Shown here: positions 1 through 50,575 of the stretch, one piece after another | Position numbering within the stretch: position 1 is the first letter of the stretch | Layout of the letters: every line of letters begins with the position of its first letter | Source: Curvularia clavata | Lineage: Eukaryota | DNA: 64,000 bases | NCBI GenBank assembly: GCA_023920165.1 | Contig: CP089275.1 | Coordinates: 1,984,001 to 2,048,000, forward strand | Direction of reading: 5' to 3' | Notes under the pieces: generated by a model | What the model saw: the letters and a program-made list of their open reading frames with translations, nothing else | What the model was told of the DNA's origin: nothing | The model's database searches: none | Made by a program: the position numbers and the translations under genes

Positions 1-1903
1 GCCAGCTAGCTCCGCCGCTCTACACACTACTTGTACAAGGCTGACTGGCTGGCTGGCTGTTGAGAGCCATGCGTCCATTGTGTCGCGTTACCTGTCGACG
101 TGATCCCTTGCCGTTTCGCCTAGCACCGGCCCAATCAACAGGTTCGCCAAAGGTCAGGAAATGTGATGTGACCATGACTGACCCGGCCATTGATTCAGGC
201 TTGCTGTGGCGTCTCTTTCACGGTTCCGCTGGCGAAGAATATCGGGCCATGACTGAGTGCCACGCGGGGGTTCGCAATAGCATTGCTACCACTACCAGCA
301 AGTTGGGCACCTGGCAGTTCGAAACTGGAGATTTACATTGCCGATCTGAGCGCCATGCTCGGCTCCTTTCCACTGGCTAGATGCGCACGGCTATCCCTTT
401 TGTCTCAAATCAGAAAGCCGTATAGGGACTTGACTACATGGGGAGTCTTCGTAGGGATTAAGTGAGCCTGCACATTCATGCAACTAACTGCCTTGTCCAT
501 CACCGACGCCATTCATAGCCACCTTTCTCAACAAGACAGAGAAACTGCAGTAGCGTGGAGGTAAGATTCGATCATGGTCTCAAGATGGAGTCTCTGATTG
601 CAGGCTGAAACCTAACGGCATCGCGCCGGGTAGTTGGCCGCCATCGCGCGTCTACTTGCTCAGACCGCAGCCTGGACGCCGCTTTCTTGCTCGAGGCCTC
701 GCCCGTGCGGGCCAGGTCTTCCTCGCCACACAGCAGAGCCTGAAACTCGAGCACACTTGCGGGGTGTATATACTGCTCCCCGATTCCTGCTATCGACCGA
801 AGGCGGCGCTTTTGCCGGAGGCGGGCGTGTCGTAGTTGCTCGGCGACTGCACTTCTCATCCACTAGTGCACCTCCACGCACCGTCACATATCATCTTCCT
901 CCTCCACTGTCATCACTGTTACACAGCTGCCTTGGCTCTGGCTGTCCATTCTCGGATCGTCATTTCGCTTTGACCTGCTCGGACATTGGCCGTCCTCACG
1001 GGACGCATGTAACGGAACGTTGGAACTGTCACCGCAGCCAATCGAGTCACGCCATCAAGTGCAGGGCGGGACGACTCGTGTACCAGGGAACCCCTGATGT
1101 GGGCGGTGCGTGCCTGCAGGGACACTTGTGCACGCTAGTGGGAAGGCCTGCATAAGCTCGCGGGCTCCGAGGTCGAAACAAATTTGACAGGCACAGATGG
1201 GGTTTGATTGAGTCTGTGATCTTCATTTGCTCCTTTGGTACCGGTCCCGTCTCCCCCAGAGGACTGTGCGGAGTTGTGTCTGCATTCCCGGACCCGGCTC
1301 GATGCATTGACGGCTAGTGCATGCGATGCTCAAGTTGTGCCTCGCCCCTCCCACTGACCCTCGTCCCCATTCTTCTTACGCGCCGTGCAGTTGATTACAC
1401 GGTTTCTCTTTGTCGTTTGTTCTGCTGCGCGCTGCCTGACTGTCCTTCTTCTTACTCTTAAAAGCGATTTGCTCTACGTCACTTTTCCCTCTCTTCTTGT
1501 TCTGTTAAAATTGCTCCTCGTCGCCGACTCCTTCCTAACGTAATACTTTCCAACGCCGCATACAACAATTGCAGAATTGCTCGCGCTTCTTGCCACCGTC
1601 AGAGCGACCAGCAGCAGGTCGTATCACAGAAAGTTCAACCGGTATGTCAACAGCAGTGTTGTCAGCATGCTATGTCGTGGATCTCTGCAGATCTCCCCAC
1701 CTTTGAAGATCATGTTGTATTGGTTTAGCAAGACACTTCCATCGTCCTGGATGGCTGACACTATACTCGTACCATCATGTTCGCATTCTGACGAGAACAC
1801 AGGCATGCGTTGAATCTTATCTACCCACAGCACCACTGGGTTGTGGTTCTGATCCCTCGACTAGACCACCATTCTTTTCCCCGATATATACGACCCAACC
1901 AAA

Positions 1904-6865: not shown

Positions 6866-6952
6866 GGTTTTGTAGTGTAGCGGTTATCACTCCGGATTCT
6901 GATCATCATCAGGAGCATTCCGGCAACCCCGGTTCGATTCCGGGCAAGACCT
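6866..6952 (+). tRNA. tRNA-Gln(CTG) with a 15-nt intron (6903-6917)
   Basis: Acceptor stem GGTTTTG/CAAGACC, D arm GTGTAGCGGTTATCAC, anticodon stem CCGGA/TCCGG with CTG at 6899-6901, T loop GGTTCGATTCC. Confidence 0.95.
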
Positions 6953-8256: not shown

Positions 8257-10259
8257 CTACAACCTGCTTCCCGCTTTCCTTCTCTTCTCCTTCTCTTGAT
8301 CTCTCAACATTCGACGTAATATCTTGCCGGACGGCGATTTCGGAATCACGTCAATGAATTCGATTCCCCCACTGATCCACTTGTACCTCGCCTTGTGCTG
8401 TTCGACATATTTCTGAATGTCGCGGGCAAGAACGTGGTCACTCTCTTCAGCGCTGACTGAAGGCGACTTGACGACAAAGGCTTTTGGTACTTCTCCAGTC
8501 TTTTCATTTGGAATCTGGATCACAGCGCAATCGTAGACAGCAGGATGTGTCAGCAAATGCGCTTCGAGTTCTGCCGGCGCGACTTGGTGACCCTATATCG
8601 TGATCAGCAGGTGGCGCGAAAGAATTGCAAGTAGACTTACTTGGACCTTAATCAACTCCTTGATGCGGTCGACGATAAACAGATGCTCGTTGCCAGAAGG
8701 TGCTTTCCTGAAGACGGCCTCATCTCCAGTATGCATGTAGCCATCGCGGAACGTCTCCGCATTAGCCTTATCGTTGTTGAAGTATCCCAGAACAACCGAA
8801 GGCGACTTCACAATCAGCTCGCCCGGCTGGTCGTATTCGGTGATCTCAGTGCCCTCGGGAGTGACAATCTTGCACTCTATGCCTGGGAGCAGAGAGCCCG
8901 AGGAACCGAACCAGATGTCATCTGGTGACGATGAAGATACGACAGTACAAGTCTCCGTAAGGCCGTAGCCTTGGCGAAGCTTCCATGAGGGGTACATTTT
9001 CTGCAAATCCTCGGCAGTTTCTTTTCCCAAAGGTGCAGCACCTGTGAATATCGACCACACGGAGCTAAGATCATACTTATCAAGCAATGCCTTGTTCTTG
9101 GTCATCTGAATGATGATCGGGGGAACCTTGTTTGGTTAGTTGACTTTTCTTCCGATTGACGACATACTTACCAAGAAGAGCGAGTTGATCTTGTAGTCTT
9201 GTATCGCTTGCAGAGTCGATGCAAACTCGAACTTAGGCAGGACCACTATACCGTCACCACGGTAGACACCGGCATGACAGATGACAACCAGTGCGTAGAT
9301 GTGCGACATAGGCAATAGGCCCAGTACCATGTCAATATAGTCAGACTGATTTCGTACGTCTTTAATCATGTTGTCTCGGTACGGCTTTTCGAAAGCTCTG
9401 ATTTGCACTAGGGCGCATGAGACAAAATCGCATATTCGCAAGCGTTCTGGGTATCTTACTCGTATTGGCAATGACGTTTCTATGTGAAATCATGACTCCT
9501 TTCTGCGTATAGCTTAGTATGGGCGCATAAAGCGTTCAGAAATTGTTGCTTACCGGCAGACCAGAGGTACCACTGGAGTAGCAGAGGAACGCGCTCCTTC
9601 TAGCACCCTCGCCAGGGCTCCAATTTAATTGTGGCAAGCGATCAAGCTTTGCGCCTTCACGGATGAAATAGTCCACTGTTTTGAACTCCTTGGGCGTGCT
9701 TCTTCCTGCGAACTTTTCCGGAAGTTCAAGGAGATATATGCGGGTCTCGGGAATTCCAGACTTCTTTGCGGCTGTTCGCGCCGTTTCCAACAGTGTAACG
9801 CACGTGAAGAGGGCCTTTGCGCCCGAGTTCTTCAACTGGTATTCGAGCTCGGAGGCACTGTATGCGGCGTTGGCGGGCGTCTGGATGCCACCCAAGCGGT
9901 GCGTGGCCCATGCCAAAGGGATTGTGTCAATCTACCGAATGTAAGTATTATAATAGATAGATTGGGCATGTGATGCCTACCGTGTTTACAGAAAAGACAG
10001 CAATGACCTTATCCCATTCCGATCCCTCGTTTGGGTGGAAGCCAAGTTCCTTTGATAGACCTCGTGCAAGATAGTCGACGCGTTCTCGCACCTCCAAGCT
10101 TGAGTACGTCTTTCCCGTCAAGCCGCAAATGAAGGGATTGTATGAGTATCCAAGCGGATGGCGGCCGTAGTTCTCATCTAGCATGAAGTCGCAAATAGGG
10201 ACCGAGTCGGGCGGGTCCATGGGGAGCTTTGGCACCCATGATGGAGGATAAAAGGGCAT
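8257..10259 (-). CDS. Peroxisomal AMP-dependent acyl/aryl-CoA ligase (4-coumarate/phenylacetyl-CoA ligase-like), 6 exons
   Basis: Spliced ORFs give the P-loop YSSGTSGLPKG, QGYGLTET, HTGD, DRIKELIK and PKSPSGKILRR motifs. The protein ends -KAGSRL (PTS1). Five GT-AG introns, e.g. 9932-9980. Confidence 0.9.
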
Positions 10260-10843
10260 CTTCAGTCGTATCTACAAGCGTGTTAGCTACGCGTTAGGCT
10301 TTGGGGACATGCAGGGACTCGCCTATCGTTGAGCCTCCGTTTATGCAGGAAAGAATTGAATCACAAGCGTACGACTGTGAGGTTTTAAGTCGTTACCCCG
10401 ACTTCCGCAAATGACGTTAGTTCTTCTAAGGTCGTCTTGGTTCGGCGCCGATAGCGCGTCAGCGTCAGCCGCAATGGTGGAGAAACTGGGGTATGCCGAG
10501 GTCATGACCTAGACGGACTAGACCATCCGCGTCACCGGGGTTATCTCGGAGTCGTCTCAGCGGCAGATATCGGCGAATCTTATAAGACTCCATAGACATC
10601 ATAAAGGAGATCGGGATAGTTGCTTGGTGTAAGATCGGGTGGCACTCGCATAGTAGCTATGTGGGTGGTGTTGTTTCTGCTGCTATCAGATGGTAGGTAT
10701 GGATGGGAGTCATGTATACGGCTGACGCCGTCTTCTCACTTTCACCGTCGTCAGCAACCTTGACCAGCGCAAGCAAGAACGCTCAGCAAGTTTGGCAAAG
10801 CAAACAAAGCCCTTGTGGCTCGACTGAGATTCCTATTGTTCTC

Positions 10844-10853
10844 GTCACGTGAC
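10844..10853. promoter_or_regulatory. GTCACGTGAC palindrome (Cbf1/bHLH E-box-like) upstream of the AlkB-like gene
   Basis: Perfect 10-bp palindrome ~145 bp upstream of ATG 10998; the identical motif occurs at 45841. Confidence 0.45.
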
Positions 10854-10997
10854 ACCAATGCTCCTTCTTGCCCTTTGTTTGTGCACTTACGGCCAGTCCT
10901 AAATTTTCAATTCCTCCAGGTATCAAACTTCTGAAAATATCAACTCTTCAGGATTGTACTGCACCACTTACTTGCCACTAACTAAAATTATACCGCG

Positions 10998-13900
10998 ATG
11001 GTGCTACCCCACTGTGGCTTCGATAATGAATATGGTGGAGGACATGAGAGCGCAACCAACCAACTCACTTCCACTAACGAGGTAGGCAACACTGCAATGC
11101 ATTACGATCTTGGCAACTATGGCACATTATCTTCCCAACGACCTGAACGAAAAAGGAAGCGCCCACAAAGACTCTGTGATGAAATGCTTGTGTCCTCAAC
11201 CAAAAATCAAAAGAGGGCCCGGAGAAACCCAATAACTCGAAAGCCTTCAAAGAATACGAAACGAACATATCAGACATCCGCTCAATCCCAGAATGAGACC
11301 ATAACCAGTGAAATCGCTGGTTATTCAGACTATTCATCAGAACCTCAAGAAAACAAGTCCAAGATTGTCATTCTCCAGTTGCCACTGAATAGCCGTTTAC
11401 TCGAAACTTCACAACGCTCTTCAACTGATCAACACATGGATGGTGAATGTTCGAATGCTTTGTCATCCCCGCTTTCTTCACTGCATCCAAGTTCGGTCAG
11501 TTCTTTCCACAAAATTTAGTCGCTACCCAACTAACATAAGTAATAGATTAGCGCTGACGCTGCTCTTGCGCCGAATGAATACAGTCAGAATGCCCAGATA
11601 TTGTCACCACCAGTACCGGCATCTACACAGGATACTATGCTGACGAGCACCTCACAAGAAAACGCTTCAAATCAAATATGCGACGATAGGCCATGTAATG
11701 GTTCTAGTGTTCTGTCACCGGAACGTCGGATATCTCTGTCAACCCTTTTGAAGCATCGTCAGGGTCATTCCGCATATCCTACACCTACGTCGACCTGTTA
11801 TCACAACTCCATCGATATAAAAGAGCTAAATAAAGAGCATGAGGGGTATAAGGAGCATGGTTCAGAGAGTGAAAAGTCTTATCAGACACAGTCTACAGTA
11901 CTCCTATGTCCTGAGGAGTCTCAGTTCGGCTATGATCGCCGCAAAATCGATGAAAACTCGCAAGTGTCTATTGTTGAAACTGTGCCTACACAACCCAACA
12001 CTCGATCTGATCATGTTGAGAGCTGTTTGGAGTCTCAAAATGCAGCTGATCGGGTCAAGCCCTTCGAAAAGGATTCTTTGGCACCAACAAGAAGCAATTA
12101 CGCAGACTCCGAAGCGACGATAGAGTGTGAAGACACTTTGAACGTTTCAGTCAGTGATTCATCGCAACTGCCAGAATATCAACAGCTTCACACCATAGCA
12201 CAGCAACTCCTCGATCATCGCAACTTAGGCCCTAATAAACCAGTGCCGGTTGGTCGACCCGACGTGTGGGCTGAAGGTCGCCAAGAGCTATGTGAAACGC
12301 TACACTATTACCGGAGCTACCAAGGTGCCTGCTACGCTACCGGCGGCTTTGTGCGAGGGTTTATGTTCGATAAGATTGCCCACGATCGTGATTATGTGGA
12401 TGGCAATGTCATCATCTCACGAGCCGGAGGTGGGCTGATTAAAGACCGAGACTCTGGAGAGATGAGAGCAGGTAGAGACCAAGTGGAGGATTCGGCTGCT
12501 CTTGGTCTAAGAAACTGTATACTTCACCGTAATCCTGTGGTTATCATTGTTGGAATCGATAATCCACACATTCCCTCGAAACTACCGCACCAATACTGCG
12601 TACTGGACTATTTCAAGCCAACTCACATCTGGGTGGAAAAGAGCGGCACTAGTAAGATTGTGAGGTACCGTTTCGAGAAGCTCATCACAAAGAAACAGTC
12701 GTGGTGGCAGGCAGAGGATGGCCCTGAAGCTGTGGAGCTTGGATCGTTGCCAAAGCCTGTTGAGAGACTTTGTGGTGATTGTGGGGCACGCTCCCTGCAG
12801 GTATATCTCAATGGATGGATGTGCCTACAACCCGCATGTCGCTCCTTCTGGAAGATGATCATCTCAGCACCTGGTCTCAGGCACAGAACTTCTTTACAAG
12901 AACCGAAGGAGGCATCCCTCATGTATGACCCGCGCTTTCTCAAGCAGAAAACTTTATGGGAAAACGATGATCAAGAACACCCGCTTGTATCAAATGTTGC
13001 CGAACTCTCGAAGCCCTCTCTCCCTGGTGAAGACACCGCGGTCGCATTCTGGTCTGGAATGGTCTGTCCAAAGTGTGGGCGCTGCATCTCTCGCCTCCAC
13101 TGGACTCACTGGGAATGTCCTAATCTTACCTGCGACTATCAAAGGCGACCCCCTCATGCACTCATTTCTGCTCTTTCTCTTCGCGACCCCCTCTGGCCTG
13201 TAACGGACAGCTACACGCTGTCAAGAGATACACACTCGTCATCGATTGGCTTCAGTGTCAAATTCGCACACGGCTATCGCATCAACCGATATACCTTGCC
13301 CGGTATAGCAGGCTTCATATTCCACATGATCGCCAACAAAACAGTGCTTGAAGAGCCTGGTGGCCCAGACGCCATGTTTGAAGAGCTTCAACAGACAGAC
13401 ATTGGATTGCAGCGCCGTCCGTTACCCAACGGCCAGCTGAAAGGACCCAACTATTGCCGACAATTTCTCGTCAACTACGGCATGCCATACAAATTCATTG
13501 CCGCCACCCAATCCCACTCCTTCGAGGAAGCAGCACGCCCCATAACCAGCACACGCAGCCGCCTGAACTGGGCCGCCAGATACCTCTTGACGCACGAAGC
13601 AGACTTGAGCCTACAGACAACAAACCAAGAATGGAAAAGCAGAGAATTCAACGAAGTCCTCGCCCTAGGCTACTTTGAAGACCAAAAAATCAGCTATCAC
13701 GACGACGGCGAATTCGGCCTCGGGCCCACCATCGCAACGCTGAGCCTAGGAGCCCAAGGAACTATGCGTATTCGAATGAAAGCCCGGCATTACCATGGTA
13801 TTTCCTCCAGTGGGGGTCCTTACGATGACGCACCCCCAATCCCAGGATGTGAACACTACCCTGCTCGTCTTGCGCTGCAGCCCGCTCTCGACACATTGAA

Positions 13901-15764: not shown

Positions 15765-16043
15765 TGTGTGTATCTTTGTTCTGGAGGAGGAGCAAGAGTT
15801 GAGACGAAAAGGCTGCATGAAAAAAAACAAAACACACAGCAAGAAAGTGGTAAGATGGTTGAACAAAGTATCTTCGGTTGGCGACGGCTCATGGGCCGAG
15901 GCACCTTCCTAAAGTGCGGAGAGTAGGTTGGATCTGGGGAAAGACATTGGCGTCATTCCGCGCCTTGGCTAAATACATGCAATGCCAGAAAGAAGTAATT
16001 CTAGATTTGATAGACAGATATTTGTCGCAGCCACGGAACGCCT

Positions 16044-16733
16044 TCAAAGCTCATCCACGCTCTTCATCGCCCTGCCATTACATTCGCCAACATCCAGCGC
16101 CACCAGGAATCTGCTCACAGCGTTGTATGCGGCAATGGTGGCCGTCAACTCTACAACCATGGTGTCCCCTAATGCCTGCTTCACCATATCGGCAACTTCG
16201 TCTTCCACTTGCACTCCGACTGTCATCTGATCTGTATATACCATAACTGCGTACTCTTCACTGCTGAACCCAGCAAGCCCCTCTTTCTTCACCATTCCAT
16301 GCTTGGTGACTGGTAGGTCCAGGAGAGATTGCAGCACTTCCTTGGAAACGCCAGCTTTGCGGGCAATGCCAGCATGAACATCCCATTCGTGCACGGCATG
16401 ATTGAGAACTGCCACTCGGCTGATTGCCAGCTCCTTGAGTGTGTCAGGGAGACTGGTCTTGGTGCGGATTGCGCCGATGAACGAGTTCCAGCCGTCTGCT
16501 ACGGCGGGGTTGTGCAGCAGCGCAAGATCGAGCGGAATGAGGGGGCGGGGCTTTCGTCGCTCAGCGATGCGCTCGTAGATTGGACGCGCTTCTTCGTTTG
16601 GGGGTTCGCTAGGGGCATATGGGACACGCATTTTGGAGGTGACAGATATGGTAAGGGTCCGTGAGTATATGGTGGAAAGGCGAGCACGTGGCAGAGGGCG
16701 TAGGAGGTTCAGCAGAAAGAAGGTCATTATCAT
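16044..16733 (-). CDS. Carboxymuconolactone decarboxylase/AhpD-like (CMD family) protein; alternative start at 16631
   Basis: Intronless ORF containing LDLALLHNP, LKELAISRVAVLNHAVHEWDVH and VELTATIAAYNAVSRFLVALDV, as in fungal CMD/AhpD-like proteins. Confidence 0.8.
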   Translation of the reverse strand: MIMTFFLLNLLRPLPRARLSTIYSRTLTISVTSKMRVPYAPSEPPNEEARPIYERIAERRKPRPLIPLDLALLHNPAVADGWNSFIGAIRTKTSLPDTLKELAISRVAVLNHAVHEWDVHAGIARKAGVSKEVLQSLLDLPVTKHGMVKKEGLAGFSSEEYAVMVYTDQMTVGVQVEDEVADMVKQALGDTMVVELTATIAAYNAVSRFLVALDVGECNGRAMKSVDEL

Positions 16734-16937
16734 AGCACAGGGGGCCGAGCGTGGATTTATAGCTAGCCATCAGAATGCACATGGCGGAGCTATGACGGAT
16801 ATGCTTTCCGGTGTTCGGGATTGTTGCACAAGTACTTTTAGCAATGGTTCCATTTTTGATTCATGTGTTGATGGCTATTTTCCATCTATTCCGCTAAAAT
16901 TAACATTGAGATATCAAACACAGCAAGAAAATGAAAT

Positions 16938-18016
16938 CTACAGCCTGCTCTGCTCGTCAAAAACGTTTGGTAGCCTGGGAATACCATCCAATCTGCTCGA
17001 CTTCTTGCCGGATGGGGCGAGTGTAACATTGTATGTCAGGTCAAGCTTGGCCTTAGGGTCTTTGCTGGGCTCAAAGTCGAGAAGCAAGTCGTCCTTGACA
17101 GCGAAGACAGTGTCGTTCTTGACGTATTGGTCGTCGCGGGGGTACAATTGTGTGATCAATGGCTTGTAGTTGTCCGCTGAAACCATGAGATGGATGTGGG
17201 CGGGACGGAATGGGTGGCGGTCAAGGACCTTGAAAAGCTGGCCAGCAGCACCTATCCGGTGGGTTAGCAAGATTCGCATATCAGTAAGAATTCATGATTC
17301 AATACATACCATCGGTGGGAAGCGAATATGCGGTAGGCTTGTAGCAATAGAACCAGTACTCGCCGTTCTCGTTTGTGGTAAACTTTCCTCTCAGGTTGTT
17401 TGGCTCCTGGTTCTCAGGGTCCTGGAAATCGTACTTTCCGTTCGCGCTCGCTTGCCAGATGTCGATGACGGCGCCGGGGATGCCCTTCTTGGTGTCAAGG
17501 TCAACGACCCTACCGTGCATAAGAGTAGTCTGGCCATCGGGGTGAGGGCTACGGATAATGGTGTCACCGAGCTCGCGGAATGGTGAGTGTGGCGACCAGA
17601 AGGGACCAAGAATTGTCGAGGAAGTAGGTGTCTCGCCAGACTCGTTGATGTGCTTGTGTGCAATCTCATCGACCAATCTGCAAATATGTTAGCAGCTTAC
17701 TCTGGCTAACCACCAGTTGCAATACTTACGACTCTACTCCGAGAACATCAGAGATACGGTGCGCCTCGTTTCTGGTGCTGGTGGTAGTCTTGCCAATCGA
17801 GTTGACAAATCGTACACCCTCGAACCACTCGTCGTTGGTCAACTCGACCTCACGAATGAAATCGTGGAGATGTCTGATCAGCTTGCCCATGACAAATCGT
17901 GTGCGTTCTGGGACATTGGGTCCAATGGCGTTGATGACAGCGTCAGTGAAGTTGGGATCGAAGCGGTGCCCAGTGTTCTCCTGAACTTCAGGCGCTTGCT
18001 GTGTGGTTCCAGACAT
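16938..18016 (-). CDS. prcA: Intradiol ring-cleavage dioxygenase, fungal protocatechuate 3,4-dioxygenase type, 3 exons, C-terminal SRL
   Basis: [82 protein letters not shown] (Fe ligands). Closely resembles Aspergillus PrcA as recalled, and sits next to cmcA and chdA. Confidence 0.85.
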
Positions 18017-18546
18017 TTTGGCTATGTGAAGATTGGTAATTGCAAGAAAAAATGAGAGGTATCAAGAAAGCCGCAGAGGACAGATGGATAGTGGATTGTA
18101 TTTCACGTTTGGGGCACGAGGGTCTTAAATAAATAGCATACTGGAATCGGCCGGCTACGTCCAACCGAGCCAGCGCCGTTTGAAATGGCCGTGTCTCTAG
18201 CCGCGTATCAGGCGATGAAGCCTTGTCAGAAGTAGTTACGGCATCCTAGAGCGGCTGTGAGACGGGCTGGAAAGATGAGGGGTGACAGTGCCGGGCTGTC
18301 CCACGGGGTTGGCGAATCAGCGCAAAGCTAAAGTGGAAGAAGTCTTAACCGCCTTTTATCCTCTACCGCTTGGCGCCGTCAGCACCACTGCCCCGCCTCG
18401 GGAGAGGCCCGGAGACTTGGTCATGCAACAAGATGGCGGGTAGGCAAAGTCGGAAGGTGGAAAACATTCTGCAACTCAATTTCCTCGTACTATCCAAACT
18501 GCGGGCGCAAGGGTTGCTGCTGTAGAAAGAACAAGAATATCCCAAC
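18017..18546. promoter_or_regulatory. Divergent prcA/cmcA promoter with CCTCGG (18396-18401) and several CGG triplets
   Basis: Head-to-head ATGs at 18016 and 18547; the motif is seen directly. Confidence 0.55.
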
Positions 18547-23008: not shown

Positions 23009-24956
23009 GATGGCGTAAGAAGAGGGTGATGATGTTTGAGGTGGGATTGGTGCATGGGCAAGGAGAAGTAAGAGAAGGCTGGGGTAAGTTTGGGCATCCG
23101 ACGTCATTGTACAAACAACCATCCCGAACCAATCACGATGCTACCCATTCTGCCGGGTCTCCCCCACTACAGCGACTGACAACGCATACGAGAGGCCACA
23201 CTCGCATTGATCTCTAGCGCCTTGCAGTCGCAAAAAGAAAAACTGCCATCGCACGTCTTGGGCTCCCCTTTGCCGTGTATAAAGTCGGCTCGAGTTAACC
23301 CATTCGAAACCCGCAATAGCCGAGCGATTGCTGTTTTGCCTAATGCATCTAGAAGACCACTTTTTTTTCCACACAAATGTATGTAGATCTGTCCCCTCGA
23401 GCGTGGGTCCTCTTAGCTTGTCGCGATACGCCCGAGAGTAAAGTTTCCCAAACCTTCTTGCCCTGCGTCTTCCCTTAGACCTAAAGCAGGCGGTTGCCGC
23501 GCTACGCAAGTCATACAGACTATCTGCGCGCGATCGCATTTTTTGTAGATAGGGACACGATACACATACTGTATGTATGCCCATAGACACTCGTGCGCAG
23601 AAATCCGTCCTCTCTTGTTGCATATCAGCGCCACGTTTTGATAGTACGTCTTAGCCTGCGTTGCTGCATGCATTCCCTTGAAGAACATGCACTTTACCGT
23701 ACACGGTAAAACTCCACAATTCAGTCCGCTTTTTTTTTCCTCTCTTCCAACGAGCCTCACTCGTCACATAGCAGGTACACTATAAGATAGCACATGTACA
23801 TCTAGCAGGACGCGCACAGTGATATGAGGCGGACGGCGAAGTACGTACTCTGATGCCGCCATCGGAGTAGACTACCCCGCTACCATTCCAGCCTTGTCTT
23901 GGTTGGGAGAAAGCGGTTAGGTTTACCGACGCCGGCCCGCCCATCACCAAGGCCTTGTGATCACGCATTACCGCTCTGGGCAGGCCTAAGATGGCTCGCC
24001 TCAGAAGAAGGGTCAGAGGTGATAGGTAGAGGACGCAGGGTCTCCTCGGATGCATGGCCATGACAAGTGGTCAACTCAAAGCCAGGTCAAAAGGCGAAGG
24101 TCAGGGTCGATCCTGTATCTCTTCGCGTAAGGATGGGCGCGATAATCGTCCTTTGTGTGGATTTTTTTTTCAGCATGGATGCGATGTGATTGGGTGTTGA
24201 GATCTGCCATTATGCCGGTAGGTATCGCTGGGCAGCGGCAGTGTCGATTTGTAAATGCGCGGCCGGCGTGCTCTACTGGCTGGAGTACCTTGTTGCCAAT
24301 CGTGATCCGTGCTGTGCGTGTACGTGCGGTGCTGTTGTTGTAAGATTGTACAGAAGGGCGGTAAGCGCGCGACGAGGATTTTTTTCCGTGATGAATGGAG
24401 GGGTAGCGGAGTCCCGGAGGGCTGCGCCGTGAGGTCACGATACTTGGCGCTTGTTTAGCGTGCAGCACTAGTGGGGTCAGTGTGGTGGGGGTGATTCTTC
24501 GTCCAAACTATGAAGCCGTCAGGAGATGAATTTCAGATGGGGGTGGTGTGAGACGCCATGACGCGTCGAAGTGAAACGAAGGTGCTGGAAAGAGGGCACG
24601 GCTGGGGATGCTTGAGATGAGATGTGGATTGTTCTGCTCCTCTCTATCTGCTCATTAGATTCATTGCTGCCATGGCGCAATCTGATACTGTACTAAAGCA
24701 TATGTGTAAATGCTGACAATGTAAACGCCGCCCAATGCAAGTGGCCCAAAACGCAAACCCGTGGTATACCAAAGACGCCTACCATGCTGTGCGCATATGC
24801 GCAGGAAATCAAAAAACCACCAACACCGTACAATGCTAGATGAATAACAACACAAGGCCTCCACTTCCCCGTAGTGATAATGCTTGAAATGTTTTTGGGT
24901 GCAACTCCTGGTTCTCATGCATCCTTAGCACAGCCATGTGCCATGCCTTCCCTCCA

Positions 24957-25625
24957 TCATCTCGACATGTCGGTCACTGAGTCTGCCCTAGCTCTTGACT
25001 TTGACCTGGTCGATGACCTGCGGCGCTCGGCGCCATCCTTTGCTTTTCTGGTTTTTGCGCGACGAAGGACCGGGACCTCGTCTTCTTCTGATTCATCCAC
25101 AGTAAAGAGATCTGGACTGGGCTCTCGCCAAGAGTGGCGATGGCCGGATAGTGTGCGTGAGTAGCGGCGACGGTTCTGTTGCTTGCGGGCAGCAAGGTCC
25201 TGGGCACGACCTCGACCTAGGTCGGCAATGCTGGACCTAGGAGGGCTGAGCTGAGACACAACATGCGGGGTATCGTTGAGGCGCTCGTCATCAAGACCCA
25301 TGAAGGACTCCTCGTCCTCCTCGTAGATGGTTGGCACATGATAGACGTTGTGCAACTGGGCGTGGTTCTGCTTGACGTAGCGCGTCCACCTGTTGGCGAC
25401 GTTGGACCTGAACTTGGCCGTCTTTGCGGTGCGTGGGCCCTCGTCGGCGTCGATGCCCGCACTCAGAGACAGCTCATAGGGGTCCTCGGCGTCCGAGATG
25501 GGCGTGATGAAGTGGGCAAAAGGGTCCTCGTCAATGTCGGGGAGATGGCTTGACGAGTCGTCATCATTCTCAACCCAGGGCGGGAAGGAGTAGGCGCGGG
25601 GATTGGCGCGGAGATAGGAAGGCAT
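24957..25625 (-). CDS. Hypothetical protein, 222 aa
   Basis: Intronless ORF with coding-like GC3 and a good start context; motifs DIDEDPFAHFITP and RHSWREPSPDLFTVDE; no recognised domain. Confidence 0.7.
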   Translation of the reverse strand: MPSYLRANPRAYSFPPWVENDDDSSSHLPDIDEDPFAHFITPISDAEDPYELSLSAGIDADEGPRTAKTAKFRSNVANRWTRYVKQNHAQLHNVYHVPTIYEEDEESFMGLDDERLNDTPHVVSQLSPPRSSIADLGRGRAQDLAARKQQNRRRYSRTLSGHRHSWREPSPDLFTVDESEEDEVPVLRRAKTRKAKDGAERRRSSTRSKSRARADSVTDMSR

Positions 25626-26899
25626 GGCGGATATGGTATTCTTGATGGCGCGGAAGAGGCAGGCGAAGCGGACGGGTAGTGGGGGCTTTGAACTTTTTTC
25701 AACCTTGACTAAGGCAACGTGACAGAGAATCTTGTCCTCCCGGCTCCCTGCCGGTCGTTACAAAGCAGCGGGCGAGCACTCGTTGGTAGAGGGCTCAGGG
25801 CTGGGGAGAGCAAGAGCTTGTTCTTGTACTTGGGGCCAGGTGGGGTGGCACACGCAAGGTAATATATGCGTGACTCGGACGCACGTCTTGGGAAGAGTCA
25901 CAGGAAGGCTGAGCGGCAGTGGAGCCTGGAAGTGAGACAATGGTGGTGGTGATGGTGGTGGTGATGCCTGGGGGACTGCTGACTGGGAAGGGGGAAAGAG
26001 GTATTAGTATTGAATCCCCGTTGTATTTCCTCCGCAAGATTGCCGGGTGTTGATGGGCATGTTCTGGAGGAATCGTGGAGTACTTATGTTGACAGGGCGC
26101 TCAGTGGTGCCGCAAGAGTCGCCCTGCAGACGCAGTGCATATGCCTGGGTGGTGCATTAGCGTGGGTGTGGGTGAGAAGCTTAGTGCAGCGTGAACAGAA
26201 AAGGCAAGGATGCCAGGGCGTGGGTGAAAGAGTGACAGGTGGGATGCATGGCTGACGGGCCACATGAGATGGTTGGTGGCACACCATCGCGGTGAGGGAT
26301 GACCTGCAGCTCGCACGCGCGCATTGGCCACTCGATGTTGCGGACACGACGGCCGTTAATGCACCACTGTCGATCGCGATGCCGACGCCGACCCGCTACA
26401 GCTGCTGCTACGGCGCGACACTGCCCAGTGCGATCGTACACAATGTATACTCTCCCAGTGGGCCCACAGCACAAACCGACGCACTACAAAGTCACGATCC
26501 GGCGCTATCGGCGGGGCCTCTTCCCACACGATGCCATCACCATACTACACCACACACACACCAGATCCACTCAGCCTCACTCAACCTTGCCTGCTTCGGC
26601 CCTGCAACACACCCTCCTGGGCAAGCTGACTACTGCTCTGCTAACACCACGCGTCCTCCGTCCCCCTCCGCCAGCATGACGAGGCTGTCTGCGTGAACCT
26701 TCGTTCGGTGCCTGCAGCCGACGACACCACCACCACCACCCTCCTCCTCCTCCCATCACGCCGCCAGTCACGGCGCGCCCTGGCAATATTTCCTCCAAGC
26801 CATGGTGCTTCTGGTTTCAGCCAAGTGCATCCTTCAGCTGATGCGGCTCCAATACACCATGTCCACCACGCCCACCACTTGACCTCTTATTGTCATGAC

Positions 26900-28780
26900 G
26901 TTCGCCATACGCTCCCGGGTCCAAAGTAGCCGTTTACTAAGACGACGCCCATATGATACTGACATGCTGGGATAACGCGGCTCTCCCCTCCCTCAGCTCC
27001 ACTCCCAACCAACCAATCTTGGTACACATTTCTGTCTATTCCTGCATTTTTCTACCCACTCGGCCTCGTGCCGGCCTTACTTTTCTTAGGTTCCCTCGCG
27101 ACCTCACACCCATCTGCCCGCATGCAGCGCAATGGGGCCGTCGGGCACCTCACAAGTGCCAAACACTGACCACCACTACGTCACCACCAAACCTGTTCCT
27201 CTACACGATCCGACTGTTGCCATCAACTTTTTTTTCCTTCACGCCTACCCAGTCCATGCGTCGTCGTTAAACGCGCCAGACTAAATTGTGGCTCAATACA
27301 TAGTACTTGACTCAGCAATTCATCTCACGTATTCCCATGTCACCTGGACCCTGATACCGCCTGACGGGGGCGCGCCATCGCCTATTCCAGGAACTTTGAT
27401 TTTCAAGCCTTTCCACTCGCTTGCTTAGACGATCAAAGGAGGCCTGAAGATCTTACCGTCAGCTTTGCACTTTGAGCGCCTCTGCGGCCTCCCCGGCTCT
27501 GATGGCGTTGCGAAGCGGGCGAATCCCAGCTGTGGGCGGCTCGGCAGGTAGAATCGACAAGACACTAACCTCCTTTCAACAAAATGGCACGCGCGACAAT
27601 CACGGCTACACATGGATTGGTGTAGTTCAAATGTTAAACTTGATTGCGGCGCTGGGATTGGACCATGCCAAAAACAAAAACAAAGGCTCCGCTGAAAACA
27701 GCAGAGACAGGTAATCCCGATAGGGAAGCAGCCTTCTTCCTTGTTGCTTTTGTAATTGGCATATCTTTCCGCTGCTTACATTCGTGCCCTACACCAGCCT
27801 CCTCGAACAATCACATGTCGCTGCCACTGTCTCCGTTGCACGTCTTGCTACTTTTCAGGAGCCCCTGGTTACTACTTCGGGTGGACTATGCTTTTACAAA
27901 CCGTGACTTTTTGCTTTTGCACGCTAGACGTCTAGTTTACATGAATCGGCCGATTGATTCAAACGTCCATCTGCCGTCAGGCACAATCCAGCGGTATTGG
28001 CGGAGATTACGAACGCTAATCGCCCTCCTGTCCTTCAACACGCTTGAGGTAGCACATCTCCCAAAAACTTTCACCGCCCTACACCGCCCTTTGCGCGTCA
28101 AATTCACGATACGATCGTCGCCCCGCGTTCGGGAGCTAATCGTTGCTAGCCTATAATGGAGGGCAGGGTCTCCCAACCTTCCAGGCGGCTACTCGACGAC
28201 ATCAAAAACACCATGCCAGTGGGTCTGCTTACTTGTAATCCCTATTTCAAGTTTTTGGGAATAACTCGGACTAGTCTCCGCTCCATAGTGTGCGATCCGG
28301 CTCCTTTATGACATCTTGGCCTGCATTTGGTCGGAGCATCGTCATTGGTCGCATGTTTCTATGAGGCGCTCACCGCCGTGTGGTTATCACCACCAAACAC
28401 CGGCAGCAGATGCCGGACTCGACACACATGCCGACATACCCAGTCTCTTGCATCTTCGGGTACAATTCCCAACGACTATGCAGGAAGCAGCTCTGCGGGG
28501 TAGAGTGCATGATACTACTGTAACGAGTTCCTACTTCGGTAAAAGCGCAACAGAACAACTTGCAAGACAATTTTAGATCGTCGCTTCTACAATTCTCCGC
28601 GGATGCGCGCGCGTACTTACTGCCCGACTCTTTGACCAACACCTTGTGAGGACCTGATGGGGCTTTCACCGACTACGTCACTCTGCCCTTCGTCTGGGTC
28701 CCGCAATGCAGTTGGCGGCAAGCGCTCAGGCACCCGACTACTACCAGCTTCACTATCCTAACGAGGGTTTTTTTTCTTAC
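26900..28780 (+). ncRNA. Candidate large structured non-coding RNA
   Basis: No credible ORF; many nested complementary helices, G-U extensions that pair only on the + strand, and CTTCGG motifs (see findings). Boundaries are approximate. Confidence 0.45.
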
Positions 28781-29565
28781 ATCGTGAACAAGACAAACAC
28801 CATCACGCGCTAGCACCGAATGACATGCGTCAGAAAGTAGTTCCCGAACCACACGATCTGTTCCTCAACAATCGGAAACAAGACACTGACGATCGTGTAC
28901 GATCGGATGCTTGCCTCGCTTGTGCACATGGAGGTGTAGGTTGTCGCAGAAATTTTTTCTTCATGCCCAACCCGCCAACCAACGACGACTGCGGGGGGGG
29001 GCAAAGGAGATCAAGATCGAAGATGATGTCGCATGAAAAAAAGCAAGCAGTTGTTGTCGTTTGACCAAAACCTTTGCTTGGCGCATATATCAATATCGAC
29101 CATGGTGTCTCAGCGAAGGAAGTGCTTGAAGTGGTGGGGAGCCGTGATGGTTGAGCTAACACCACGGCATCTTTCTATCCATGTATAACACCAGAGCGTT
29201 AGTCTCTTACTTTGTGTGTGTGAGTGTGTATGGGTGTCACTCTTTCCCAACAAGGGGTAGAGCAAGCCAGCACAGAGTACGCGCGTACAGAACCACATAA
29301 CTGTTGAACATCTAGACTTTGCGCCTGTGTTTTGTGGTGTTTCTTTTTTCCCCTCAAGTTTCAGAAAAACGTTGATTATGACTATTCCAAATGGAAAATG
29401 CTCCATACACACACACACCATTTGACGCCAGATCTGCCATACCCTCCATCTTCCTACTCATCCCACCCACACCCCTCCTTCTCTGCTGTAGAACATTTTT
29501 AGTAAAACGCCGCGAACCATGGGTATATTCATCAGAAAGGCAACAAGGGGATAAGGGGGGGTTAG

Positions 29566-31771
29566 CTACGACGGAATGCCGATCTCATAGCCGAGCATGA
29601 CCTCTGTCGAGGCGCCTTCCCAGCCCCGAGTGCCACCTGTAGATATCAAAAAGTTGCACGCCGGGTCGAGGTAGAGTTGCGAAATGACGCCTGTACGGTG
29701 GCCTGGGACAATGAGGAACGGGGTCGCGGAGGCGCCGGTTTTGGTGCCGGACGTCTCGTCGTGCGTGAGATCATACAGACGGAGAATGTCGTAGGAGGCG
29801 CTATTGGTGAGTATTTCATTAGCACGTGTGTGAATACCTCTTGAAAATACGAACGACAAGGTGGACATGTGACAGCGCATAGCGGGTCTTCTGTTGTTTA
29901 AGAGGGGCTCATTCTTTGGACTTACCAAACGAGGTGTTTCCCATTGGGCATAGCACGCACGGCACTCACGGGACCACTGACACTCGGGAATCTGAATGTG
30001 CGTCTTGGTTCGCGCAGGCTCTTGTGGAGACTGTATTCGTCTACGGTGCCGTTTCTCCGGCCGGCATAGATGAAGTTGCCGTCAGGTGACCAGCACGTAT
30101 TCATGCACCATGGAGGCGTGTTGCGCGGCGGTGTTATACGTGCGACAGGGTTCGGCTGCCGCCTGTCCCAGATGCGCAGTATACCGTCGATAGAGGCATC
30201 GACAAAGGTTGTTTCGGATGAAGCTGGCTGTTCCGTCTGGTTGGCTGATGGGTTGGCAGGTTGCTCCGTGTCTTCGGCATGGGGTAGCCCGTTGGCGGTG
30301 CCATTTGCTTGTGAGTCGGCTACTCCGTTCGTATCTGGCTGAGTCTCAGTGGCTGTTGTAGAATCTTTTGCACCTTCACCGGCAGGCTCCTGAGGTTCCT
30401 GAACAGGGCCGCCTAGGTCCATCATGTCCAGGTCGGCATTGGCATCCTCATCTGCCTGCTGTATGCCGTTTGCTATGGCTCTTGAAAACTCGTCGTCGTC
30501 GTCCCCAAATGAAGGTAGAGTTGCTGATAAATTATTCTCCTGACCGCCATCTCCAAACAACGAGTCCTGGTCCTTGTCGCCAAACAGAGAGTCGTCTGGA
30601 GAGCCCTGGGCATCTTCAGTACCCTCCTCTTTCACTACGGGTTTCGTGTCGATGCCGTTGGGAATGCTTCCGCTGGCTCTAGGCCGGGCGGCATTGTTGG
30701 AAGAAAAGGTGCCATTCGCCAGGGGGAGAGTTTCAGTGTCCTGAGGTATAGGCACCGTAGACATTGGTCGCTGCTCGATCGCAGCGATTTGACTGCCGCT
30801 TGTTTCAAACTTCCTCTTGACTTGGCCAGTGTTTAGATCCCAGTCGTTGATGGTCTTGTCCCAGCTACCACTGAGTACCGACTTCTCATCTTGCGCTAGT
30901 GTCAAGACTGACACAGCCGAGGTGTGGTTCCTCAACGTGTGGATTCTGGTTCCTTCTTGATGTCGCACTGACTGCAGATTGATACCTCCCGAGTCCAGGC
31001 CTGAGAGCAGCCACAAAGCCTGGTGGTGCACTGCGAGTGAGTAGACTGGCGACAGAGTCTCAGCCCCGCCTGTATTGTCTTCATTTTCCCAGTACGACAG
31101 TAAGACACCTGCCTTTGTGACCGAGTCAACAAAAGGATGTCGTTGGGCGACTGTGAGAGCAAGCTTTCCGTTGGCGGTATCTACCCAGTTGAACTTCCGT
31201 ATATAACCATCTGTACCTCCAGTAAAGACCCATCGCATGTCGGGCGTTGCGGTAATCGCGTTTATGGAAGTACTGTGTGGCGCCGCAATCGTAGGAATAA
31301 TGTCGTAGACGGGCGCATTCAAAGCCTCTTGTCGCACGCTTGGTCGAAAAGGGAGATTGCCCAGTACACCCGTTGCTGCAGCAGCATGGGGACTCGGTGA
31401 TGTGAACGTCACCGCTGGATTGCCGTCTCCTTGCCCAGGGGTGCCGCGTGGACGCTGTGAAGGGCTGTCTGGCTCATCTTGGTCTTGTTCTTGGTCCTGG
31501 TCCTGGTCCTGGTCCTGATCTTGGTCCTGATCCTGGTCTTGATCTTGATCTTCGTCGTCATTGTCGTTGTCTCCTTCGGCGTCGTCGTCGTCGTTGTCAC
31601 CGTCATCTGCGTCGTCGGCATCTTCCTCCTCGTCTACGTCCATGGCATCATTGTCATCCTGCTCGTCCTCGTCCTCGGCGGAACCTACGCGAGCGGTCAG
31701 CGGGAGAGCTCTGGAAGGTGCTTGTGGGTGCAATTACTGGCGCCATTCTCGTAGTCATCCTCGTCGTTCAT
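29566..31771 (-). CDS. SPT8: SAGA subunit Spt8 (acidic N-terminus, WD40), 3 exons
   Basis: YDIIPTIAAPHSTSINA, GKLALTVAQRHPFVDSV, SPVYSLAVH, PPWCMNTCWSPDG..GRRNG, ASYDILRLYD, GTRGWEG; introns 31685-31737 and 29801-29925. Confidence 0.93.
31481..31555 (-). repeat. Coding hexamer repeat encoding (DQ)n in the Spt8 acidic N-terminus
   Basis: Tandem GACCAG/GATCAA-type units; the translation reads DQDQDQDQDQDQDQDQDQEQDQD. Confidence 0.85.
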
Positions 31772-32622
31772 TATGCGCCCATGAAATCAGGCCTTATTTA
31801 CTCTTGGTCAATCCGTAGACTGTGTTGTCGTCGCACATGCGATGCGCCCGACGTTCGCGTTGAGGGACATGGATGAGGCTCGGCCTCGCGCGTCATGTCG
31901 GGGAACGCGCGTGCGCCACACCATACTAGCCACACTCGACTCAAACAACAATCTCAAGTAGAATTGTGAGTTTTCATACTCAAAGAACTCGGGCAACATG
32001 TCCCTCCCTTGAGAAGTAGTCACTGCTCACTTAGGCAACTGCCTTGGTGCATGGTGCGCATCCACAGCCGATCCATGATAGAAGCTTGCTACATATACAT
32101 TATGACAAGTGTCTCCTGCGAACAATGGCTCTTCCATGATCGAGATGTTGCGAATATAGGAGAAACATAGAGTGCAGGCAGATCACGAAAGACAGAAGCA
32201 TGACTCAAGCCACTACAAAAGCTACACTGGTATATGGGTTAGAAATGACGCAACTGGGGCAATGCCACGGACATAGGCGGCCATTGCGATGGTGGGGAGG
32301 ACATGTGGCTTGGCCCATGCTCCAACCTCGCTGCTGAATCAGAAACGCCTTTGATACAACACAAGCCTCGAAATCTACATTCGCCGCGATAGAATACCTT
32401 GGGAGAGAGAGACAGCTGTCTTCTAGTCGTACCCCCTGCGCAACGCCGACTGTAATCGCAGCGATCGCATCATCTCCATCTCTATCTCCATACCTATTGC
32501 AGTAGCCTGGCCCCTCGCAACCTCTTAGGTCGCTATTACTGCTGCCTTCGCAGAGAAAATACGTGGTCACAACAACGTTACCTACTTAAAGCATTCACTC
32601 GATCCTCCCTCCGCCTACCAAA

Positions 32623-50219: not shown

Positions 50220-50575
50220 GAGCTACTAGCTGGTGTTGAATATGCACCATCGAGTGAATACACCAATATTTCGCTATATAGTACTGCTTTCAGGAAAATG
50301 AATCGTAAACAAGTAGACACCTACATCGATTCTTACAGCCTTGCAACCCTCTGTCTCGATAGCCTTTGCTATCATATAAATTCGACCCATACTTCTGTTC
50401 CTCCATCCCCTTGAACAGCTTTCGTTCTGTGGACTAGGTCCTTTACATACACTACTATCAAAGATACAGCTTCTTCTCAGCTACTGGAACATAATGCCTG
50501 TAGATCGAGGTGATGGTAGCGAGATATTTTGGCTAACCCTAGTAGGCATCGTGGTGGAGTGAAGGTAATATTCGC

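Follow-up and report, generated by a model that had tools for sequence, protein, structure and literature searches.

A conserved, spliced non-coding RNA between a 222-aa gene and SPT8 in Curvularia clavata

The locus and its transcript

We analysed a stretch of 64,000 nucleotides (nt) of Curvularia clavata DNA (NCBI GenBank assembly GCA_023920165.1, contig CP089275.1, positions 1,984,001 to 2,048,000 of the forward strand; this whole stretch is called the window, and positions are counted from its first letter), with the focus on the gap between a small gene of 222 amino acids (aa) and SPT8. This gap encodes a conserved, spliced, non-coding RNA of approximately 2.7 kilobases (kb), located at about 26532-29241 on the + strand. 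Roughly 0.5 kb separates its start from that of the small gene, which lies on the - strand and is transcribed divergently, and about 230 nt separate its end from the 3' end of the SPT8 transcript, which converges on it. The starting point was a first-pass annotation, made by a model from the sequence, which proposed an unannotated, highly structured RNA as the scaffold of a ribonucleoprotein (RNP), transcribed from the + strand by RNA polymerase II.

RNA contigs were obtained from four public runs (X16-X19), of which X17 is a metatranscriptome and X16 carries the type label '?'. The latter was treated as an RNA library because its contigs carry adaptor sequence at their ends and lack both SPT8 introns. 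Such contigs cannot show RNA ends, abundance, or strand beyond intron orientation; contig depth was not used for ranking expression, and stretches uncovered in X18 and X19 are uninformative. The candidate is covered from 26532 (X16) or 26570 (X17) to 29192 and 29241, respectively, in two runs from two studies and with uncovered gaps on either side. The transcript is made up as follows:

26532..28218, + strand: exon 1 of the non-coding RNA (X16 contigs 26532-26765, 26755-27377, 27467-27951 and 28055-28218; X17 contigs 26570-26798 and 26793-27294); its 5' limit is the first contig base, not a mapped start
28219..28274, + strand: intron of 56 nt, GT..AG (an X16 contig joins 28218 to 28275)
28275..29241, + strand: exon 2 (X16 contig 28275-29192; X17 contigs 28341-28600, 28597-29048 and 29028-29241)

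The GT..AG ends of the intron place the RNA on the + strand and, since it is spliced, we take it to be an RNA polymerase II transcript. Together the contigs show a discrete transcription unit and spliceosomal splicing, two marks of a long non-coding RNA (lncRNA), and they bear out the unannotated + strand polymerase II transcript of the first-pass annotation. Its suggested 5' branch site and acceptor at 26641-26674 are not used as such in two RNA contigs, which run colinearly across.

The longest ATG-initiated open reading frame (ORF) of the spliced transcript measures 163 aa and is preceded by 15 upstream ATGs. The four longest ORFs match no Pfam family, in the nearest relative (L004) every ORF of the candidate contains stops, and the longest ORF is a different one in every relative. 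The RNA is therefore non-coding, without a conserved reading frame, and the earlier statement that the gap holds no credible ORF can be maintained.

Conservation in relatives

Relatives were collected as 30 metagenome loci using the SPT8 exon as query. The whole interval is syntenic in five of them (L002, L004, L005, L006 and L007), its 3' part is present in L001 and L003, and L009 comprises the small gene and the start of the RNA. The window and the five syntenic loci were combined in a six-sequence alignment, in which 557 of 2244 columns (25%) are invariant in 26532-28775 against 21 of 695 (3%) in 28776-29470. Exon 2 is conserved up to about 28775, and its tail beyond that point is unconserved. 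The longest invariant runs in the non-coding RNA measure 15, 13, 12, 11 and 10 nt; in the same six sequences the SPT8 exon is 63% invariant overall, with a longest run of 11 nt. Identity to four more distant relatives amounts to 42-44% for the RNA versus 76-78% for SPT8, and about a dozen RNA islands, 12-50 nt long, show almost no change in relatives with SPT8 coding DNA that is 76-82% identical. The resulting pattern is a mosaic in which the spacers between islands evolve fast and are rich in indels. The equivalents of the intron measure 56-69 nt, start with GTGGG(T/G) and end with AG in six of six aligned sequences. Judged by these patterns, the locus is under selection in the relatives.

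Eleven islands (b1-b11) are matched by nhmmer in every relative covering them, and by blastn and nhmmer together in five of five whole-interval relatives; both programs also give partial island matches in L001, L003 and L009. The islands are:

b1, 26568..26579, + strand: CACTCAGCCTCA, a run of 12 nt without variation close to the 5' end (nhmmer, 5 of 5 syntenic relatives)
b2, 26673..26723, + strand: about 50 nt with at most 92% identity, containing the first AUG and its 6-codon ORF (nhmmer, also in L009)
b3, 26813..26858, + strand: GGTTTCAGC ... TTCAGCTGATGCGGCTCCAATACACC (alignment, blastn, nhmmer)
b4, 26952..26981, + strand: ... CTGGGATAACGCGGC (alignment, nhmmer)
b5, 27339..27366, + strand: GTCACCTGGACCCTGATACCGCCTGACG (93-97% identity in L002, L005 and L007)
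b6, 27869..27940, + strand: two alternative short helices, 27869-73/27880-84 and 27881-88/27933-40
b7, 27944..27954, + strand: palindromic AATCGGCCGAT (alignment, nhmmer)
b8, 28068..28176, + strand: CTTTCACCGCCCTACACCGCCCTTTG, then CGGGAGCTA, GCTAGCCTA and CAGGGTCTCCCAA (nhmmer, six relatives including L001)
b9, 28206..28226, + strand: AAACACCATGCCA and GTGGGTCT, spanning the 5' splice site (alignment, nhmmer)
b10, 28364..28376, + strand: AGGCGCTCACCGC, a 13-nt invariant run with a possible hairpin of 4 base pairs (bp), 28365-68/28374-77
b11, 28602..28681, + strand: GATGCGCGCGCGTACT and GGGCTTTCACCGACTACGTCAC, with a 15-nt invariant run at 28666-28680 (seven relatives including L001 and L003)

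Within b8 the 10-nt unit CACCGCCCTA occurs at 28072 and again at 28082, forming a near-invariant direct repeat of 1.9 copies. The word CACCG is present in four copies on the same strand (TCACCG three times, CACCGC three times), all within invariant runs, and the longer GAGGC(G/T)CTCACCG is found as a pair, once in b10 and once in b11. The recurrence of TCACCG/CACCGC together with this pair suggests sites for a sequence-specific partner; we know of no described motif that matches the word. A likeness of two islands to ribosomal RNA words was dropped because, by our estimate, chance alone should give about a dozen matches of 8 nt. In L004, positions 1-110 (+) duplicate, in inverted orientation, the b11 region of the same contig (near 9620-9720); a fold-back error in assembly, here at the end of the contig, is the probable cause.

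Neighbouring genes

On the upstream side the RNA is flanked by the following features:

24615..26038, - strand: transcript of the 222-aa small gene, with its ORF at 24960..25625 (RNA contigs, ORF)
26039..26531, no strand: shared divergent promoter gap of the small gene and the non-coding RNA (uncovered in four runs, both flanks covered)

The limit of the small-gene transcript falls at 26036-26039 in all four runs, and none of them has a contig in 26040-26531. The small gene matches no Pfam family. Its homologues comprise 205 matches, and among the best 120 of these 205 every named one is a Pleosporales 'hypothetical protein', so that the Pleosporales affiliation assumed in the first-pass annotation is reasonable. 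The gene adjoins the RNA in L004, L006, L007 and L009, in the last of which it and the RNA start (b2) are inverted as a unit relative to SPT8 (16007-18128 versus 9841-11833) at a distance of 4 kb; the stored locus stops 50 nt past b2. Within the promoter gap, 26062-26376 shows 80.6% identity in L005 (blastn). This value is higher than that of the small gene's own coding DNA in other relatives (70-73%).

On the other side the identity of SPT8 is confirmed by PF23798 (E 7.9e-109), and the RNA contigs show its two introns at 29801-29925 and 31683-31735 (- strand, CT..AC on +). The gene contains an acidic D/Q/E-rich repeat at 31472-31608. Its last exon (29575-29802) aligns at 71-80% even where the remaining downstream region is unrelated (L010-L021).

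Folding of the RNA

The complementary words on which the claim of a highly structured RNA was built are all present (29 of 29). Their abundance is at the level of shuffled sequence. Region 26590-28780 contains 137 perfect complementary 7-mers versus 126.9 +/- 13.6 in 100 dinucleotide shuffles (24 of which reach 137), 36 8-mers versus 30.7, 11 9-mers versus 7.2 (16 of 100 shuffles) and a single 12-mer versus 0.1 expected (6 of 100 shuffles). The same holds for an equally long stretch of SPT8 coding sequence used as a control, in which a 12-mer likewise occurs once. The nested pairs are not kept in relatives either, and the claim of nested helices beyond chance can therefore not be upheld.

Only 19 of the 86 pairs in the proposed domain helices appear in the RNAfold minimum-energy structure of 27340-28010. 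When the + strand is divided in thirds, z-scores against shuffles (20 each) are +1.15, -2.23 and -1.60, with 19, 1 and 1 of the 20 shuffles folding as well, which gives no support for a large fold. The middle third, which is 27340-28010, has a z-score of -1.07 on the - strand. Windows of 150 nt have a mean z of -0.24 on the + strand and -0.06 on the - strand, compared with -0.22 for the + strand of SPT8. The strongest of about 200 such windows is 27625-27774 on the - strand (local z -4.12, 40 shuffles); it is not conserved in the alignment.

Two further features had been taken as signs of a + strand RNA. The first concerns G-U pairs: in both 1.1-kb halves the - strand has the lower energy (energies only, without shuffles), so that G-U pairing gives the + strand no thermodynamic preference. 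The second concerns CTTCGG tetraloops. Four of these indeed lie on the + strand of the region, none of which is kept in all relatives, and in the whole window CTTCGG occurs 32 times on both strands versus 32.4 expected.

Conservation of the individual helices is likewise poor. Helices h1, h2a, h3a, h3f, h4b, h4e and h6 go down to 0-3 pairs in the most distant relatives, and the terminal stem (h6) has no counterpart in relatives. The 3' arm (28249-28260) of the 12-bp helix lies within the spliced-out intron, and 4 of its 12 pairs are formed in L005. On the six-sequence alignment the 17 proposed helices (113 pairs) are 58.4% paired including the window and about 48% excluding it, versus 32-41.5% in slid controls with the partner shifted by 1-3 columns; any structure derived from a member of the alignment beats such controls by construction. 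RNAalifold in 75 sliding windows gives a consensus energy near zero in most, with a mean z of -0.39 (+) and -0.21 (-) and with nine (+) and eight (-) windows below z -2.

A few short hairpins deserve mention. An imperfect hairpin of 15 pairs is possible in b2, with zero compensatory changes and a positive covariation term. In b6, helix 27869-73/27880-84 has five of five pairs in six of six sequences, and the mutually exclusive helix 27881-88/27933-40 has 8, 8, 7, 8, 5 and 8 of 8 pairs. Both b6 helices and the one in b10 vary solely by one-sided, G-U-compatible changes, a pattern that fits a + strand RNA without proving it. A long-range pair between GACCCTG (27347) and CAGGGTC (28164), with 7, 7, 5, 5, 4 and 5 of 7 pairs, was not convincing. 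From the stacks of at least 5 columns that are paired in all six sequences (51 on the + strand, 107 on the - strand) no inference was drawn, given that invariant islands and base composition dominate them.

Comparison with RNA families

A check against the covariance models of Rfam had been proposed along with the candidate. With Rfam 15, whose families include RNase P/MRP, small nuclear and nucleolar RNAs, SRP and telomerase RNAs, it returned no match at E<=1 in 24000-32000. At E<=10, region 26450-29300 gives one chance match (E=6), and in L005, L006 and L002 there is one match of E=6.2 outside the homologous region. The gathering score is attained in the 64-kb window by a single match, a transfer RNA (tRNA) at 6866-6952 (+; 87 nt, 52 bits), the length of which suggests an intron inside. 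Word search and Rfam agree with the earlier observation that the candidate has no TTAGGG template and no RNase P/MRP or small nuclear RNA signature. As for the C/D and H/ACA boxes of small nucleolar RNAs (snoRNAs), inspection of the islands by eye only shows UGAUGA-like and CUGA words, not in conserved, correctly spaced pairs, and Rfam 15 gives no snoRNA family match in the candidate.

Interpretation

Taken together, we propose with a probability of roughly 0.55 that the locus encodes a conserved RNA polymerase II lncRNA, divergent from a Pleosporales-specific small gene, which works via short modules rather than via a large fold. Short and mostly unpaired sequence modules would carry its function, among them the four CACCG copies and the conserved splice-site context. 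These modules would serve to recruit sequence-specific RNA-binding proteins or pairing partners; a few short hairpins may suffice, and no single rigid large scaffold would be needed. From the original RNP-scaffold proposal this retains the unannotated + strand non-coding polymerase II RNA, now also under selection, and gives up the high degree of structure and the specific nested helices.

Several observations weigh against this proposal. Neither blastn nor nhmmer finds any island in seven other SPT8 loci with at least 3.5 kb of downstream flank (L010, L011, L013, L016 and L020-L022), from which it follows that the RNA is limited to a subgroup or is not syntenic there. The relatives represent only three effective lineages (the window and L004; L007, L006 and L002; L005), which leaves little power for covariation; no two-sided pair change is seen in the helices tested, so even the short hairpins are unproven. 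Splicing is evidenced by one contig of one run (X16). Finally, the islands contain TGACTCA/TGACTAA, CCAAT/ATTGG, TGACG and CAGCTG, which we take to resemble transcription-factor sites, and some of the conservation could therefore reflect a function of the DNA itself.

This last point leads to the main rival, which is possible though clearly the less favoured view: the islands are DNA elements, that is, transcription-factor sites of an unusually long control region, for instance of the well-conserved small gene, and the RNA is a by-product of divergent transcription. The island words, presumably basic leucine zipper (bZIP), CCAAT and E-box sites, would fit such a view, as would the strong conservation of the common promoter region (80.6% in L005), the linkage of RNA and small gene in L009, and the near absence of consensus RNA structure. 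Against it, the invariant runs of 12-15 nt within blocks of 25-50 nt exceed typical factor sites and reach 2.2 kb from the promoter, both the splice-site letters and the intron length are conserved throughout the six-sequence alignment, and every copy of the repeated motif has the same orientation. Moreover, the transcript is long and spliced, unlike the typically unstable divergent promoter transcripts as generally known. We consider that the run lengths, the splice signals and the motif orientation count only weakly against conservation of DNA with by-product transcription.

More speculatively, the transcript might be an undescribed trans-acting RNP RNA of Pleosporales, whose invariant islands a conserved cellular machine would use for docking or pairing; we regard this as an uncertain extension. 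The elements involved would then include the tandem CACCGCCCTA, the TCACCG/CACCGC copies and the GAGGC(G/T)CTCACCG pair, and the conserved intron could play a part in maturation, by analogy with fungal telomerase RNA.

A large, highly structured scaffold with nested long-range helices, as first proposed, is improbable. The fold of 27340-28010 does beat its shuffles somewhat, and more clearly on the + strand than on the - strand, and the proposed pairs exceed the slid controls, though for a structure derived from the window this holds by construction. Against these stand word pairs at shuffle level, the small share of pairs recovered in the minimum-energy fold, the positive z-score of the first third, near-random helices in distant relatives, alignment folding around zero in most windows, and a 12-bp helix that relies on intron sequence.

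It is very improbable that a protein-coding or micropeptide gene was missed, consisting of small exons or of the ORF of 6 codons that the first AUG opens in b2. This AUG (26677) and its frame are kept in five of six sequences, and an ORF of 163 aa is somewhat long for random sequence. However, L005 lacks the AUG and has a 2-nt insertion in that frame, every longer ORF is broken in L004, and the RNA contigs show just one intron. Furthermore, the islands are sharp-edged and no 3-nt periodicity was noticed (by eye only).

Telomerase RNA we consider excluded, apart from a marginal residual chance. In filamentous ascomycetes this RNA is described as having a template-pseudoknot core, in which the template is of TTAGGG type and spans about 1.5 repeats (9 nt in N. 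crassa), and a three-way junction with a highly conserved P6.1 consisting of a 4-bp stem and a 5-nt NUNGN loop (PMC3592445); in Aspergillus its 3' end arises by spliceosomal cleavage at a non-canonical AUA(A/C)GU 5' splice site (PMC4299874). In favour, the size of the candidate agrees with the 2425 nt given for M. graminicola telomerase RNA (PMC3592445), it is likewise a non-coding polymerase II transcript, and a conserved intron lies in its 3' part, as all known filamentous-fungal telomerase RNAs use the spliceosome for their 3' ends (PMC4993307). Also, the near-invariant direct repeat of b8 looks template-like, so that an unusual template (tandem CACCGCCCTA/CACCGCCCTT) could be imagined. This exotic template was rejected: it would imply telomeres other than TTAGGG, whereas a Pleosporales genome is reported to have TTAGGG telomeres (PMC8146201), the two repeat copies differ in L006, which a template with alignment region would not tolerate, and the repeat lies only about 130 nt upstream of the splice site. 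The + strand of 26376-29576 contains no CCCTAA-permutation of 7 nt or longer, nor do the relatives have a conserved one; the isolated template-like 8-mers of L004 and L005 are found at positions that are neither homologous nor conserved. Two hairpins of P6.1 type (4 bp and a NUNGN loop) at 27061 and 27872 in 26530-28800 are kept in two and one of six sequences, respectively. The window, L004, L006 and L007 have no AUA(A/C)GU; L005 and L002 have single copies that do not align. The intron of the candidate is a normal GT-AG intron seen fully spliced, and the candidate is without any Rfam match.

Elsewhere in the window the telomere-template-like 9-mer CTAACCCTA occurs at 50533 (+) and 61283 (-), where about three are expected by chance; the surroundings at 50533 (+) are ordinary-looking sequence with nothing telomerase-like.

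Significance and comparison with known systems

Few fungal lncRNAs are conserved in sequence beyond the species or genus, and the islands found here hold longer invariant runs than the neighbouring coding exon. The islands, the conserved intron and the repeated motif provide concrete targets for mutation in order to find protein or RNA partners, in an order in which many plant-associated species are well suited to genetics. The case further illustrates that lists of complementary words compiled from raw sequence can lead to a real RNA for the wrong reason. In the open literature on Dothideomycetes telomerase RNA and Pleosporales lncRNA we found no report of this RNA, subscription journals and genome annotations being outside the scope of the search.

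Known lncRNAs that act as motif platforms are the fission-yeast meiRNA, with its clustered protein-binding motifs, and mammalian NORAD. The candidate would resemble these in working through repeated short motifs and modular islands and not through a global fold, and its spacers are likewise poorly conserved. Unlike them it contains only three to four copies of its repeated word, TCACCG/CACCGC.

Divergent promoter-associated non-coding transcripts, and regulatory non-coding RNAs that adjoin fungal genes, as generally known, are similar with respect to the bidirectional promoter and to the linkage that persists through the rearrangement in L009. The candidate differs in being much longer (2.7 kb), spliced, and conserved along 2.2 kb.

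With the telomerase RNA of filamentous ascomycetes, as described by Qi et al. 2012 (PMC3592445) and Kannan et al. 2015 (PMC4299874), the candidate shares its nature as a non-coding polymerase II transcript of the 2-kb class. In both, short conserved islands are embedded in fast-evolving sequence and a conserved intron is located in the 3' part. Unlike that RNA, the candidate is without the TTAGGG template, the conserved P6/P6.1 junction and the AUA(A/C)GU site; its intron is canonical and fully spliced, and its conservation reaches into exon 2.

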